Source: Candidatus Woesearchaeota archaeon
GTDB lineage: Archaea; Nanobdellota; Nanobdellia; SCGC-AAA011-G17; GW2011-AR18
Direction of reading: 5' to 3'
DNA length: 64,000 nt
Assembly: GCA_018302765.1 (NCBI GenBank)
Contig: JAGVZG010000003.1
Location: 11,081 to 75,080 of the forward strand
Position 1 is the stretch's first letter; each line of letters begins with the position of its first letter. A program made the position numbers. Shown one piece after another: positions 18,001-63,000 of this stretch.

Positions 18001-21000
18001 AAATTAATCACACCTTTCTCTTCCACTAGCCTACCAGAATAAAGAATTAACTTAGATTTTATAGGCAAACCTAATTTATTTCTCATTTTTATTTTGTTTC
18101 TCGGTATAAAATCATTTAAAGGAACTCCATTAGTTATAAACTCAACGTCTTTTCTATATTTCTTAAGTTCCTCGTATAGTCTATCACCAACACAAACAAC
18201 AATGTCTACAGAATTAAGTAAGTACTTAAAAATGTAAAAAAATATACCTTTTCCTTTTACGAAATAAATATCGCCACCTCTAATTGTCACAATAGTTGGC
18301 TTTTTATAGAACTTCTTCAAAATTAAGCAAGGTATAGTTGATATTATCCAGTTGCCGTGAATTATATCACACTTTTTTCCTTCTTTGATTGCTTTAATGT
18401 AAAGCCTAAATATGCATGGAATAAGTTGAAACCAAGCAGTAGGATTTCTCTTTAATGATAATGCTATACCGTCTGGATTTATAATATCACTATATTTCTC
18501 ATCTGGTTTTACTAATATTATTTTTACACCTAAAAATTTTAAATTATCCTCTAATGTTTTAATAAATACTCCTCTTGCATTTCCTCTGTACGGATAAGAG
18601 GATGTAATTAAGCATGTTTTCATAGTCAATTAAACAAAATAAATTCATAAAACCAACACAATTAAGCAGCAGTTTGTTCATCAGAAACTGCTCTGCTAGT
18701 TCTCTTGTAACGCATTAATATATTTTCTAAATCTAGGCGTCTTTGTTCTCCTTCCTCCTTACTAATAATACCATGTGATACTAATATTCTATTCATGTCA
18801 TACATCTTATGTGGTCCTTCCAATTCAGGTATCCAATGTGTAACTTCTAAATTTTCTTGCCATCTTCTTTTACTTTCAGATAATCTTTGTTCATACTCAC
18901 AAACAATTTCTCTAGCTTTTGCATCTCTAGGTAATATAGAAACAATTCTTTTAACTTTAATGTGTGGGTAACCAACAACAGGTTCCTCTACCTCCATAGC
19001 TAAACCTTCTGGACTATCTCTCAGATCTTCAGCAATCTTAGTTCCAGGTAAACTAAACAACTTATCATTAATTCTTACAACGCCACCTGATTTTAATTCA
19101 TATGTAATTCCCCTAACACTATTAGCTAAACCAGTAGGAGTTGAATACAAACCAGATAAGATCATATAAGAAACAACATTAAGGTTATAATCTCTACATG
19201 CTCTTAGCGCTAACCTATTTACTTCTGGCCCATTTGACCCTAACTTTTTATTATAAGCCTCCAATTCATTAGCATCAAAACTTTCTACACCGATACTTAT
19301 TCCTACAAAACCAGCATCTCTAGTAGCAGCTAATAATTTATAATTAATTTCAAGTGTCTTAGGATGAACAAAAGTATCTACCCTAGCCTTACCATGATAA
19401 GTAATTTCTCTGCCATCAAGAACTCTAATATTTTCTTTTACTTTCCCAAGAACGTCTAAATCATCCAAAAGTTCATCCTCCGTTCCACCCCTTAAAAACC
19501 ATAAATCATCTTTAAACATCACTTTTCTAGTACCTGGATTCTTTTTCAACAAATCCATTACATAACTGCCAAGATCTTCCCCACGCATAGCTACAATTTT
19601 TGCAGGTCTTCCAAAACTATCTCTATGATAAAAAGTAGTACTACAAAAGCCACATCCCATGGGACAATAATTACTTGTATAAGGTTTAACAGTTAAAAGT
19701 TTTCCTAAAAGAGCAGGATCTTTTAATTGTTGTTCTGTATAATGTGCCTTTAATTGAGCCCAATATTTATCTAAATCAACATCTGTAAAATCAACAGCCC
19801 TTGTAGCTCTTGTAAATTCTTCAAGAGAAAATGGATCACCGTATCCTGTAAATATAGAATGTTTATCATCTTGATCTGATCTCATTCTTAATCCAGGAGG
19901 AGAAGAACCATTACCAACTCTAATGTAAAAACCCTTATCGTTATGCAAATACTTAGCAGGATTTTCCCTGACATTATTAATACCATACCTAAAAATTTTA
20001 TCTAAGAGAGCAGTCATAGGTTTCTCTCCATCTCCTCTAGCTATAACTCTAAGTTCTGGTATATAAGGAAATAATAAATCTCTAGACAAACCTGCTTGTT
20101 GTCCCCCTGCAATATGCAAAGCATTAGGTAATATTCTTGAAGCATCAAGCATATGTCCCATATCTCTAGAAAGAGTATCATGCAGAGGACTATAACCAAC
20201 AATATTATAGCAATGACTAGTCAATCTTGTATTTAATTCAACCCTAGGATCATCATATAAATTAGGATCAAAACAATCAACTTGAACTTTATCTCCATAA
20301 CTAGCTTCTACCCATTTTCTAATTCTATGAATACCTAAAGGAGCAGAATTAAAATAAGTACTTCTATTAGGCCCATCATCAGCATGAATTAATAAAACAT
20401 TTAATCGACCATCACCCATATAATATAAGCCACTTTTGCACATATATAAAATTTATGGATTATAGCTCTAGTGCAATCCTAAGTTTTAAGTAAATTAAGT
20501 ATAGTCCCATTATGCAGCCCAACAAGTCGAATTGATAAGCAAATTTATAGTTTATAATTTAGATATAAAACTAAATTTTTTTACTTACTATAGAAAGTTA
20601 CACGAAAGTCTGAATTATCTGTCTCTTATTATATTTTGTACATACCTATTGCCATAAATTTTATTTCCCTTCAAGACATAATCAGCTAAAAGGAATAACT
20701 TATTCAACAAAAACAGTATTTTAGTTCTCACTACATAAGATTTTTTCTCTAGATTTTTTGTATCAACAAATTCTACATAAAAATTATCATGTTTATGATT
20801 ATTCAGAATCCCACATAATATAGACAAAGCTGAATCCAGATATTTCTTATTATTTGTTAATTCATATATTTTAAGCAAAGTTACTGTAATGTCATTTTGT
20901 GTGTCCAACCATGAAATATTAGTAGATAATCTGCTTAAATTTAACATCTTATCATTAAGTAAATTAGTATCATAATCATGAACTATTTCTGGAATTAAAC

Positions 21001-60000: not shown

Positions 60001-63000
60001 TTATATGCTAACAACCTATGTCAAGGTGGATGCGCTACAAGATCAGCATACTCAAGAGTAGACTACAATACTGGATTAATAACAAAAAATGATGATCCTC
60101 ATAGTTATAGTGAACACAGAGAAGATCCTCTTTGCCCAGCATGGACTGTATTAGCTATAAAACAAGGAATACTCAGAGAAGGTTTATTGGAAGAAATACA
60201 CAATAGGATACTAAGAAAAAGCAAAAGAATTGATCCTAAAGAATTTCCCTTTGAAGCCTTAAATTACTGAAATCCTACAAAAACAATATACTAATAGGTA
60301 GTAAAAATAAAAAAGACCAAAAGTTCACAAATTTTATAAGCCATTCTTTTACATTTAAATGTAGAAAATTACTGTTTTTAGATAAATAAGGCATAATAAA
60401 AGAAGCAAATCAAAAACAATAGTTAATTGAAATAAAATGAAACTATTTATCAATACTGGTGGAAAAGGAACAAGATTGTATCCATTAACAAAAGATATAC
60501 CAAAACCAATGGTAAATATATGTGGAAAACCAATACTACACTATCTAGTAGACTGGGCCAAAAATAATAACATAAAAGAAATTATTATGATGAATGGTTA
60601 TAAAGCAGAAAAAGTAATAGAATACTTCAAAGACGGAAAAGAATTTGAAATTGATATAAAACATTCAAATGAACCACAGCCATTAGGAAGTGGGGGTGCA
60701 ATAAAATTTGCAAAAAATTACATTGATGAAACATTTGTTTATATATCTGGCGACTTATTATGCGACATAGACTTAAAAAAAATCATAAAATTTCATAAAG
60801 AAAACAAAGGAGATATGACAATAACTTTATTTCAAACAGACCACCCACATGACTCAGACATAATTAAAATAGATAAAAACAATAAAGTAATAAAATTTAT
60901 ATCAAAACATGATAACCATGCAGGAGCAGGTAATCTATCTAACTCAGGATTATGCATAATAGAACCAAAAATAATAGAGTTAATGGATAAAGAAATATTC
61001 ACATTTGAAACAGAAATATATCCTAAAGCCATAGAGAAGAATCTAAGAATATTAGGTTACGTAACAAATGAATTTATAGAAGACATGGGAACACCAGAAC
61101 GTTTTAAAAAATGCGAGGAATACTTTAAATCAAAATGAGAATATTAGTTACAGGTGCAGGCGGAATGATGGGATGTCATATTCTAGATTTTCTTACAGAA
61201 AAAAACCATGACGTATTAGGCATAGACTTTGTTCCAACAACAGATATAAGAGAATTAAATAAAAAAGCAGTTTACATGGAGTGCGATATTAGAGATAGAA
61301 ACAAGTTAACAAATATAATAAACCTATTCAAACCAGAAGCAATATGTCACCTAGCTGCACAGAGTTATCCTACAGTATCTTGGGATAGGCCTGAATTTAC
61401 TATGGAAGTAAATGTTATAGGTACAATAAACCTCTTTGAATCTGTAAAAGAATTAAAATTAGATCCAGTGATATTAAACGCCTGCTCAAGTGCTGAATAC
61501 GGTTATATTGATGAAAAAGAAGTTCCTGTAAAAGAATCTAGAGAATTAAAACCTTTACATCCATATGGTGTAAGCAAAGTTTCGCAAGAATTATTAGCTT
61601 ATCAGTACTTTCAAAACTTCAAAATTAGGAGTATATCAGCAAGGATATTTAATACAACTGGTCCTAAAAAAATTAATGATGTTTGTTCAGATTTTACAAA
61701 ACAAATTGTTATGATAGAAAAAGGATTGCAAAAACCAGTAATGCATGTAGGAAACCTAAACACAAGAAGAGCAATCACTGATGTAAGAGATATGATAAAT
61801 GCATTCTGGCTGTTATTAGAAAAAGGAAAATATGGAGAAGCATATAATATAAGCGGAAGCAAAGCATATCTAATCAAAGACATACTAGAAATACTAAAAT
61901 CATTGACAAATGTAAAATTTGAGATTTATCAAGATCCAAAATTAATGAGACCAACAGATGAACCAATAATTTATGGAGATTCATCAAAAATAAAAGCAGA
62001 TACAGGTTGGGAGCAAAAAATACCCATAGAAAAAACACTAAAAGATATGCTTGAATATTGGAGGAAGAAATTATGACTATTATAAGAAGTAGGTCACCCC
62101 ATAGGATAGAATTTTGTGGTGGTGGGACAGACGTACCTGAATACTATAAAAAAAATGGGGGCTTTGTAATAAATGCAGCAATTAACAAATATTCATATGT
62201 AAGCCTTCACCCATATGATGAAGGTATAAAAATTACTTTAGAAAACAAAAATACTGTAGAATTTCCAAATTTAAAGAGTATAAAATTTGAAGGGGATTTT
62301 GATTTAGTAAAGGCTATAATAAAAAAATTGCAAATAAATAACAAGGAAATATTCCTAAGAAATGATATCTTACCAAGCAGTGGATTAGGGACAAATGCGG
62401 CAATTGCAACAGCAGTTATAGGAGTAATATACAAATTAAGAGAACAAACATTAGACAAAAAAGAAATAGCAGAAGCCGCTTATGAAATAGCCTCAAAAGA
62501 ATTAGGAATTTATGGAGGAAAACAAAACCAATATTCTTCAGCATTTGGAGGAATAAATTCAATAGAATTCAAAAAAGATGGAGAAGTAATAGTAACACCT
62601 CTAAAAATTAGCAAAAACACATTAAGAGAACTGGAAAAGCACCTAGTCTTAGTTTATGTAGGAAAAAGAATAAACCCAAATGAAATACTAAAAAAACAAG
62701 AAAAAGAAAGTCTGCAAAATAATAAATTAGAAGATCTAGATAAACTAAAATATATTGCAATGGAAATGAAAGATGTTCTGGAAAGTGGAGACACAATAAA
62801 ATTTGGAAAACTAATGGATAAAGCATGGAACATAAAAAAAGTATTTAATCCGAATATTTCAACACAATATATAGAACACATATATGAAATAGCAAAAAAA
62901 AATGGAGCAATAGGTGGAATGATAAATGGTGCTGGTGGGGGTGGTCATATACTATTTTACGCTGAACCAAATAAAGAACCGCTGCTTGTAAGAAAACTTC

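Follow-up and report, generated by a model that had tools for sequence, protein, structure and literature searches.

The methylphosphonate cluster of Nitrosopumilus maritimus encodes PepM, Ppd, Pdh and MpnS, the last with a known structure (PDB 6b9s). mpnS has been reported in Thaumarchaeota, SAR11 and other taxa, and archaeal and bacterial mpnS neighbourhoods contain glycan and transferase genes (PMC9381506). In Prochlorococcus and SAR11, phosphonate cassettes are borne on islands of the flexible genome and their pepM phylogeny is discordant with the species tree, a pattern read as horizontal exchange with a link to cell-surface molecules (Acker et al. 2022, PMC8931226). Here we examine a 64-kb stretch of contig JAGVZG010000003.1 (assembly GCA_018302765.1; hereafter the window), in which the same four enzymes as in N. 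maritimus are encoded by a minus-strand operon likewise embedded among glycan and transferase genes. The window has a G+C content (GC) of about 29.5%, and its host is a metagenome-assembled genome (MAG) of a Woesearchaeote, a tiny groundwater-dwelling DPANN archaeon of about 29% GC that is not a methanogen. Seven window genes, namely the four operon genes, two radical S-adenosylmethionine (rSAM) genes and one orphan, differ in composition from the rest, and we consider it probable (roughly 0.6) that they represent an old or recurrent import from GC-richer microbes into a recombining glycan/lipid island of the Woesearchaeote.

We compared these seven focal genes (Table 1) with the other soluble window proteins on three measures: the arginine share of Arg plus Lys, R/(R+K); the combined fraction of Phe, Tyr, Ile, Asn and Lys (FYINK); and GC at second codon positions (GC2). 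The focal seven have R/(R+K) of 0.40-0.67, FYINK of 0.234-0.284 and GC2 of 0.366-0.401, against 0.086-0.347, 0.314-0.489 and 0.197-0.365 in the 35 remaining soluble proteins, and the ranges are disjoint on all three. The preliminary description of the window, which had singled out four sites as compositionally distinct from K/N/I-rich neighbours, is borne out in this respect, here for seven enzymes. Conserved enzymes elsewhere in the window are Lys-rich, with R/(R+K) of 0.27 for threonyl-tRNA synthetase (ThrRS), 0.23 and 0.29 for DegT aminotransferases and 0.20-0.33 for dehydratases. In a blind principal component analysis of the 20 amino acids, the focal seven rank top among soluble proteins along an axis that opposes K/I/N to R/G/P, where a carbamoyltransferase (13983-15716) overlaps their low end; Ward clustering of the window proteins on amino-acid usage does not isolate the seven as a group. 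Because the focal genes were picked by composition, p-values on composition would be circular and the contrasts serve as description alone. Independent tests come from the residual GC at third codon positions (GC3), CGN arginine codons, a regression over orthologs and replication in relatives.

For the operon, the regression separates constraint from foreign ancestry cleanly. We assembled 80 loci with MpnS/HepD relatives from species-representative genomes, together with several metagenomic loci, and for every operon protein tested by regression how the Arg/Lys ratio depends on flank GC (44-78 loci per family). R/(R+K) follows flank GC closely for the Fe-dependent alcohol dehydrogenase (ADH; r=0.97), Ppd (0.95), MpnS (0.95) and PepM (0.90). 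The window copies are outliers from these trends (z of +2.9, +2.3, +4.5 and +5.4, respectively), as are those of a syntenic relative, L005 (+4.3, +3.3, +3.6 and +4.8). Other AT-rich hosts, among them the Woesearchaeote L009 (27% GC), SAR11 and Nitrosopumilus, carry Lys-rich operon proteins, and the composition of the window operon matches that of genomes with ~42-74% GC. In the MpnS family R/(R+K) has a median of 0.36 and is at least 0.6 in just 3 of 119 homologs; the window and L005 lineages show net Lys-to-Arg gains (5-6 versus 1), counter to the mutation pressure of the host, and share eight derived Arg sites (1.7 expected by chance), with 12-16 more that are lineage-specific. Since these families track host GC, AT-rich hosts carry Lys-rich orthologs and the window copies lie off the trend, purifying selection fails to explain the composition of the operon, which is atypical both for its host and for its families in such hosts. 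There is thus strong evidence that the operon is of foreign, GC-richer ancestry. A bacterial source, which had been thought possible, does not emerge: the nearest operon matches are other DPANN-type archaea, not bacteria.

Synonymous sites carry a second signal. Third positions of the focal genes had been described as AT-biased, which holds even beyond the level of the neighbours (GC3 of 0.147-0.192 versus a neighbour mean of 0.206). A pooled comparison of focal genes with the rest also gave a preference for T-ending codons, a preference that we discarded as an effect of strand, since all but one of the seven focal genes lie on the minus strand and third positions are strand-asymmetric: over the whole window (1-64000), T3/(A3+T3) is 0.49-0.69 in minus-strand and 0.31-0.43 in plus-strand genes. 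Whichever way the genes run, A predominates at third positions of the plus strand, and the AT skew is positive nearly throughout, without a switch. When the comparison was repeated within strand, two signals survived, a deficit in GC3 and an excess of CGT arginine codons. The amino-acid-corrected GC3 deficit is present in 7/7 focal genes (z of -2.2 to -4.4, within strand), and after correction for amino acid, strand and next base the focal mean z is -2.78, against +0.07 for the rest (p=1e-5). An effect of the first base of the following codon is real but insufficient to account for the deficit, and general compensation between GC3 and GC at the first two positions (GC12) is rejected, with r=-0.11 among non-focal genes. 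Among Arg codons, the CGN share is 24% for the focal genes and 8.5% for the remaining genes (p=4e-8). By gene, the share is 31-41% in the operon, 21% in the orphan, and 9% and 3% in the two rSAM genes. The excess is repeated in Arg-rich genes of relatives (17% versus 2% in L005, 13% versus 3% in L089), and GC3 beneath that of the neighbours recurs in the window, L005, L089 and L093. The preliminary description had named GC3 and codon usage equal to those of the neighbours as the outcome that would tell against it; corrected GC3 differs, though, unexpectedly, by being lower. Four non-focal genes likewise have significant amino-acid-corrected GC3 deficits (z of -2.4 to -3.3; Table 1). One of them, the carbamoyltransferase, has 30% CGN among its Arg codons and the top Arg/Gly content among non-focal soluble genes, and may share the history of the focal genes.

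One alternative to import is that tightly constrained cofactor and metal enzymes intrinsically resist AT pressure and look Arg/Gly/Asp-rich without any transfer. The two rSAM families lend themselves to this view: R/(R+K) is 0.40-0.67 across hosts of 27% to 69% GC in the family of the 593-aa rSAM and 0.36-0.70 without a GC trend in that of the rSAM enzyme with a SPASM domain, which keeps 66-72% identity across domains. The contrast with the neighbours also persists through deep divergence, in L005 as in L089. We nonetheless judge constraint unlikely as the explanation, since the four operon families follow host GC, equally conserved window enzymes (ThrRS, DegT, dehydratases) are Lys-rich, and constraint predicts neither the synonymous GC3 deficit nor the CGN excess.

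The relatives of the window bear on how old the contrast is. L005 (NCBI MAG GCA_053531355.1, 32% GC) has the same neighbourhood in the same gene order. Its outer flanks are 76-85% identical to those of the window and its central region 35-63%, with divergence greatest at the operon and declining outwards (Table 1), and R/(R+K) in its operon, which also has lower GC3, is 0.53-0.65 as against 0.15-0.28 in the flanking genes. MpnS falls within a 97%-supported DPANN-type clade that is star-like inside (54-61% pairwise identity). A concatenated tree of the four operon proteins unites the window, L005 and L007 at 100% with an internal trichotomy (49/27/24%), the sister relation of the window and L005 blocks having a bootstrap of only 49.5%. 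In L007, a genome of 40% GC, the flanks are unrelated and the compositional contrast is missing; operon alleles of the syntenic relatives are therefore as distant as those of unrelated genomes, and the block trichotomy is discordant with the similarity of the flanks. The pattern is that of a surface-polysaccharide locus whose centre has been exchanged by recombination or kept as old alleles. In a second syntenic pair, L007 and L096 (39-40% GC), the flanks are 76-86% identical, PepM and Ppd 79-80%, MpnS 60%, ADH 65% and the adjacent CDP-alcohol phosphatidyltransferase (CDP-OH transferase) 64%, identities that indicate gene-scale mosaicism within the operon. L007 also has a DDE transposase close to the cluster.

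These relationships would also fit a maintained disequilibrium, in which an Arg-rich, low-GC3 class of genes is sustained by recurrent re-import or allelic exchange from a common accessory pool of GC-richer partners or hosts of DPANN cells, or by selection on the proteins, and does not go back to one old event that is still relaxing. The equal divergence of block alleles between syntenic relatives and unrelated genomes, the gradient around the block, the mosaicism of MpnS relative to PepM and Ppd in L007/L096, and the few Arg-rich, low-GC3 genes in each of the DPANN-like islands L005, L089 and L093 all agree with it. Fresh imports should, however, show higher GC3, which is not seen, a near-identical GC-rich donor was not found, and few loci were sampled; we regard this reading as improbable. 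Arg-rich genes with GC3 below that of their neighbours do recur in DPANN-like glycan loci (Table 1), some of them in L005, L089 and L093 without any Pfam domain, and a bimodal composition seems to be a recurring feature of such islands.

The preliminary description went further and proposed that the genes were acquired recently and one by one, possibly from bacterial or other archaeal donors, and have since been partly ameliorated. A four-gene segment that includes the 593-aa rSAM gene is indeed missing from L005, where a B12-binding rSAM gene directly precedes tylF; CGN relics differ between genes, which implies more than one history; and the 593-aa rSAM has Streptomyces homologs. The claim that the genes are recent add-ons is nevertheless unsupported for the operon and the orphan, because relatives have them in matching positions and with the same contrast (the operon in L005, the orphan as a 59% identical ortholog in a conserved cassette), because focal proteins (on 19-26 contigs) are as prevalent as flanking genes (on 12-26), and because no insertion scars are seen. 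Third positions are at or below host level without residual donor signal, the nearest non-self homologs of the focal genes are only 55-72% identical, and the rSAM enzyme with a SPASM domain (rSAM/SPASM) is a component of phosphonate clusters elsewhere, so that a series of recent additions is very improbable. Of the piecemeal character of the acquisitions, what stands is that CGN relics imply at least two histories; the tie of rSAM/SPASM to phosphonate clusters in other genomes speaks against independence. An assembly or binning chimera, in which odd genes from another organism were joined in silico, is hardly credible, for although the source DNA is a MAG, identical proteins occur on the 19-26 contigs of independent assemblies (NCBI, JGI, ENA and Logan), the focal genes abut or overlap operon neighbours, their GC3 and strand skew agree with the host strand pattern, and synteny of the arrangement extends to L005 and L089.

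Several observations weigh against import from GC-richer microbes. GC3 lies beneath that of the neighbours and not between host and donor, whereas simple amelioration predicts an approach from above. The contrast outlasts ~45% protein divergence between the window and L005, which is long for unfinished amelioration. Leu CTN and Ser TCN, the other six-fold codon groups in which relics might persist, give no signal. No GC-rich donor was identified, and the closest relatives of the operon reside in genomes of 27-40% GC. Insertion scars or flanking repeats at the operon borders amount to chance-level matches only, and searches for viral carriers returned none for the rSAM genes and one distant match (37%) for MpnS/HepD, a family member on a predicted viral IMG/VR contig, IMGVR_UViG_3300030107_006534. 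The orphan and both rSAM genes are atypical relative to the host, but their 5-16 homologs are too few to set a family expectation against which an intrinsic composition could be told apart, and in the rSAM/SPASM family R/(R+K) is unrelated to host GC (n=5). Nor do the usual marks of mobility (repeats, tRNA, integrase or insertion sequence) point to transfer in the window, within which no tRNA genes were found.

On balance we favour import, old or recurrent. The operon, a member of a DPANN-type clade, would have evolved for long in a GC-richer genome before entering the AT-rich lineage of the window and L005; alternatively, it would have been swapped in as a cassette by recombination in the conserved flanks. 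Since entry, synonymous sites would have fallen to the AT-rich mutational floor while the slower protein composition retained the old signal. CGN Arg codons would retain it as well, because they have no route to AGA without a first-position change. The orphan, Arg-rich with CGN relics and lower GC3, would follow the same pattern as the operon, and the two rSAM genes would be rare cross-domain movers, intermediate in composition in every host examined. We suppose that the GC3 undershoot reflects weaker codon selection on the focal genes. Such import into a recombining glycan island is the most economical account, and none of it would be recent. Since CGN relics set the operon and orphan apart from the rSAM genes, at least two histories would be involved, that of the operon with the orphan and that of the two rSAM genes.

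The operon runs from 32670 to 27300 in the order PepM-nucleotidyltransferase, MpnS, Ppd and ADH. The first gene encodes a phosphoenolpyruvate (PEP) mutase domain fused to a MobA-like nucleotidyltransferase; R/(R+K) is 0.61 over the entire protein and 0.71 within the mutase domain. It scores well above the cutoff of Pfam PEP_mutase (159.5; cutoff, 31.5) and narrowly misses that of the NCBIfam equivalog TIGR02320 (312.8 bits; cutoff, 319.55). In place of the diagnostic motif EDK(X)5NS, residues 133-142 read EDQVWPKRNS, a K-to-Q change that keeps the loop Lys and the Asn-Ser; the EDQ variant is common to the window and L007, and EDK occurs in L005 and seven other loci. Given the downstream Ppd, ADH and MpnS, this is most likely a PEP-mutase-family enzyme working as PepM.

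The second gene had been labelled HepD. We reject that identity: the protein matches MpnS (6b9s) with 432 bits, HepD (6b9r) with 284 bits (2e-83) and HppE with 26 bits, over alignment residues 30-472, and has two tandem helix-turn-helix (HTH)-cupin modules. It aligns over its full length to N. maritimus MpnS and keeps the 2-His-1-Gln iron site, with H139, Q143 and H180 (P0001 numbering) opposite H148, Q152 and H190, invariant in 20 sequences. F153 and I174 are also invariant among relatives, within 'VNFYY' and 'SMYITP' where HepD 6b9r has 'VNYYF' and 'SVWGLP'; as Born et al. reportedly found in 2017, Phe162 and Ile184 pin the Gln ligand in MpnS, HepD having Tyr and Gly at these positions. Judged by its sequence, the gene is an MpnS. 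An MpnS, an O2-dependent enzyme expected to convert 2-hydroxyethylphosphonate to methylphosphonate and CO2, is a surprise here, since Woesearchaeota are commonly regarded as anaerobes.

Ppd exceeds its equivalog cutoff (Table 1). The ADH reaches 166 bits against TIGR03405 (PsrA/PhpC type), short of the cutoff of 423.7 although this is still its best NCBIfam match, and NCBI names a near-identical protein phosphonoacetaldehyde reductase; from its operon position it is probably such a reductase, yielding 2-hydroxyethylphosphonate. The neighbouring membrane protein of the CDP-OH transferase family, whose homolog adjoins the operon in L005, L007, L096, L011, L012, L016 and L017, is a probable head-group transferase linked to the operon. 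By family assignment, the predicted pathway leads from PEP through phosphonopyruvate, phosphonoacetaldehyde and 2-hydroxyethylphosphonate to methylphosphonate, probably followed by nucleotide activation and transfer of the phosphonate to a surface lipid or glycan. The operon would thus make methylphosphonate via 2-hydroxyethylphosphonate and, with the CDP-OH transferase, probably place a phosphonate head group on surface glycan or lipid. A second B12-binding rSAM nearby, host-like in composition (Table 1), matches two P-methyltransferase families below threshold (132 bits for the Sden_1168 family and 113 bits for the PhpK family), and the phosphonate may be its substrate. In L007 and L096, too, the operon is flanked by B12-rSAM genes.

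The rSAM/SPASM enzyme has a CxxxCxxC motif (CNFACTWC at residue 104) and seven Cys at 341-459 in addition to its two Pfam domains; no named NCBIfam subfamily reaches its cutoff, and neither rSAM protein of the focal set has sequence relatives in the PDB. The rSAM/SPASM family is very small: of 1.84 billion representatives, only 14 reach E<1e-30. Homologs of 66-70% identity occur within the MpnS clusters of four MAGs, three of them archaeal (L015, L017 and L018) and one deltaproteobacterial (L070), and the closest relative (L095; 72%, 54% GC) directly follows a half-size MpnS/HppE-like cupin in a PepM-Ppd-ADH cluster. In L095 the gene overlaps this half-size HTH-cupin of the MpnS/HppE family by 4 nt. 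An HxlR-type winged-helix regulator of host-like composition is transcribed divergently from the window gene, and the same divergent pair is found in L015 (43% identity). Because rSAM/SPASM lies in PepM/MpnS-type clusters of five other genomes, its site and the operon form one functional module: the pair is an accessory of the phosphonate module and not an independent addition, though with a mobile history of its own. In bacterial clusters rSAM/SPASM is 69-72% identical to the window protein. Over the archaeal and bacterial loci together its identity is 66-72%, whereas the other cluster proteins of these loci reach only 31-48%, and in L095 it is an AT-ward compositional outlier. No publication in the literature searched links SPASM to phosphonate clusters. 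There is a slim chance that the pair is an undescribed cross-domain phosphonate accessory and, jointly, that the Arg-rich, low-GC3 class in AT-rich DPANN islands is a standing pool replenished by exchange with GC-richer partners and not what is left of one old transfer. Under that joint reading, rSAM/SPASM may partner the cupins that oxidise 2-hydroxyethylphosphonate, MpnS or the half-size HppE-like protein of L095, and might, with little or no oxygen, modify 2-hydroxyethylphosphonate or methylphosphonate in DPANN archaea and anaerobe-like bacteria. A rare rSAM/SPASM enzyme tied to phosphonate clusters is a concrete target for enzymology.

The 593-aa rSAM had been labelled a B12-rSAM. Its radical SAM core, with the CPMGCGFC motif, is clear; the N-terminal B12 domain is only weakly detectable, with PF02310 undetected in this protein, a weak BchE match at residues 47-149, weak matches to the B12-rSAM enzymes BchE and HpnR, and PF02310 in more distant homologs (P0180-P0187). 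Its 16 homologs in all include one that, as in the window, adjoins a GT1 glycosyltransferase (70% identity, in a locus of 27% GC), one of 63% in a 37% GC glycan locus, and one of 59% in several cultured Streptomyces, complete genomes among them. The Streptomyces copy is an AT-ward outlier (GC of 0.59 versus 0.68-0.72 in its neighbours; GC3 of 0.74 versus 0.82-0.87). In Streptomyces sp. 13-12-16 it adjoins an NDP-sugar epimerase gene. Foreign ancestry, argued for the operon by the regression outliers, CGN-Arg relics, Lys-to-Arg gains and block-versus-flank divergence, is for the 593-aa rSAM only plausible, again from a GC-richer source.

The 324-aa orphan has no family or structure match in Pfam, NCBIfam or the PDB by sequence and profile searches, and seven homologs among 5.8 billion proteins, with a highly conserved core (LPHGPGIYTxAGGYGVHFRGR ... 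RELxxPEDSF). Human NUDT22 is a UDP-sugar Nudix hydrolase. The AlphaFold2 model of the orphan (pLDDT 58) has NUDT22 as its best fold matches, at a non-significant E of 0.3, a weak lead toward a possible NUDT22-like Nudix sugar-nucleotide hydrolase. The ortholog noted above stands in the same DegT/epimerase/GT2 cassette of L089/L090 (33% GC), with flanking genes 40-64% identical and the same contrast, R/(R+K) being 0.63 against 0.06-0.35, with lower GC3. The orphan is probably an old resident of its sugar-modification cassette.

Window proteins match NCBI MAG entries MBS3152062 to MBS3152113 exactly (locus tags J4230_), which identified the host where a scan of GTDB representative genomes did not retrieve it (best hit, 53%); a GT2 beside the operon has no exact protein match on record, probably owing to start-codon choice. 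The long glycosylation island holds many GT1, GT2 and GT4 glycosyltransferases, flippases, DegT aminotransferases and NDP-sugar dehydratases, as well as methyltransferases, SGNH/AlgX-like proteins and carbamoyltransferases.

Table 1. Features of the window and of related loci (positions are those of each locus; focal genes are marked; identities are to the protein in L005; GT, glycosyltransferase; GH, glycoside hydrolase)
Feature	Locus	Positions	Strand	Identity to L005 (%)	Remarks
Threonyl-tRNA synthetase (ThrRS)	window	2320-4035			Precedes long cell-surface glycosylation island
Non-focal genes with GC3 deficit	window	6688-7770; 13083-13994; 13983-15716; 45034-46074			Third is the carbamoyltransferase discussed in the text
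Carbamoyltransferase	window			76	
Four-gene segment	window	16591-22060			Methyltransferase, GT1, 593-aa rSAM, GH-like; missing from L005
593-aa radical SAM enzyme (focal)	window	18662-20443	-		R/(R+K) 0.56; Pfam Radical_SAM; CPMGCGFC at residue 260
TylF	window			85	
Second B12-binding rSAM	window	22143-23579	-	81	Host-like; 4 kb from operon
Hyper-divergent centre	window	24309-34729			Flippase, methyltransferase, CDP-OH transferase, phosphonate operon, GT2, flippase; tblastn against L005, gene by gene
Flippase (B12-rSAM side)	window			61	
Methyltransferase	window			62	
CDP-alcohol phosphatidyltransferase-family membrane protein	window	26533-27246	-	58	Lys-rich, host-like; Pfam CDP-OH_P_transf
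Fe-dependent alcohol dehydrogenase (ADH; focal)	window	27300-28445	-	48	Pfam Fe-ADH and ADH_Fe_C
Phosphonopyruvate decarboxylase (Ppd; focal)	window	28442-29584	-	56	TIGR03297 equivalog, 360.2 bits (cutoff 312.5)
Predicted methylphosphonate synthase (MpnS; focal)	window	29586-30938	-	55	450 aa, ATG at 30938 (29586-31007 in the focal set); PDB 6b9s, E=2e-128; earlier label HepD
PEP-mutase domain + MobA-like nucleotidyltransferase fusion (PepM; focal)	window	30928-32670	-	49	580-aa open reading frame, first operon gene; Pfam PEP_mutase 1.4e-46, NTP_transf_3
GT2	window	32743-33492		35	Beside operon
Flippase (GT4 side)	window			63	
GT4	window			82	
324-aa orphan (focal)	window	42111-43085	-		R/(R+K) 0.615; without Pfam, NCBIfam or PDB match
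AglB/STT3	window	50505-53144			Within glycosylation island
HxlR-type winged-helix regulator	window	58336-58701	-		Host-like composition; divergent from rSAM/SPASM; Pfam HxlR 5e-21
Radical SAM/SPASM enzyme (focal)	window	58759-60270	+		503 aa; Pfam Radical_SAM 37.3 (cutoff 29.5), SPASM 29.7 (cutoff 21.5)
HxlR-rSAM/SPASM pair or homolog	window	58336-60270			
HxlR-rSAM/SPASM pair or homolog	L015	7953-9936			
HxlR-rSAM/SPASM pair or homolog	L017	2901-4430			
HxlR-rSAM/SPASM pair or homolog	L018	11562-13100			
HxlR-rSAM/SPASM pair or homolog	L070	12090-13580			
HxlR-rSAM/SPASM pair or homolog	L095	9276-11518			
Further Arg-rich gene, GC3 below neighbours	L005	3547-5247			
Further Arg-rich gene, GC3 below neighbours	L089	4481-5365			
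Further Arg-rich genes, GC3 below neighbours	L093	3542-5253; 6363-8986			
Homolog of 593-aa rSAM	L092	10001-11704			Streptomyces sp. 13-12-16
MpnS/HepD-family protein	L098	2948-4297			Predicted viral contig; distant, 37% identity

Imported phosphonate cassettes in surface-glycan islands are already known from marine bacteria, and the core finding is in that sense not new. What is new is the presence of complete methylphosphonate-type operons in DPANN archaea (Woesearchaeota and Nanoarchaeota-type MAGs); no publication in the literature searched links MpnS to Woesearchaeota or DPANN. These operons bear on which organisms produce methylphosphonate, a precursor of aerobic methane, in groundwater and sediments. 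Side results are the DPANN MpnS operon itself, the PepM motif variant and the conserved rSAM/SPASM accessory. The window is also a cautionary case: where genes from both strands are compared together, strand bias can pass for a difference in codon usage.

Compared with the N. maritimus cluster, the window locus belongs to a DPANN Woesearchaeote whose MpnS falls in a separate clade, its PepM carries a fused nucleotidyltransferase and an EDQ in place of EDK, and its partner is a CDP-alcohol phosphatidyltransferase and not a sulfatase-type transferase; it further adds the rSAM/SPASM and HxlR pair, and its proteins are not at compositional equilibrium with the host. Phosphonate cytidylyltransferases of the PntC type, fused to PepM or encoded next to it, were reportedly described by Rice et al. 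in 2019. The MobA/LicC-like nucleotidyltransferase at the C-terminus of the window PEP mutase resembles these and, by analogy, suggests nucleotide activation of the phosphonate before transfer, although the window pathway would continue to MpnS and not to 2-aminoethylphosphonate. Bacterial O-antigen and capsule loci exchange serotype cassettes, and the window resembles them in having conserved outer flanks around a divergent centre that contains the genes of atypical composition; it differs in being an archaeal N-glycan/lipid island with AglB/STT3, in which only the operon part of the centre is atypical. Amelioration of acquired genes is said to be position-specific, as proposed by Lawrence and Ochman in 1997. 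In line with this, third positions in the window have reached equilibrium, and the first two positions, like amino-acid usage, trail behind; unlike in that scheme, GC3 undershoots that of the residents and the lag spans the ~45% protein divergence from L005. Relative to the cassettes of Prochlorococcus and SAR11, finally, the transfer seen in the window survives as a lasting compositional imprint in a lineage of archaeal episymbionts and is invariant within the sampled population.

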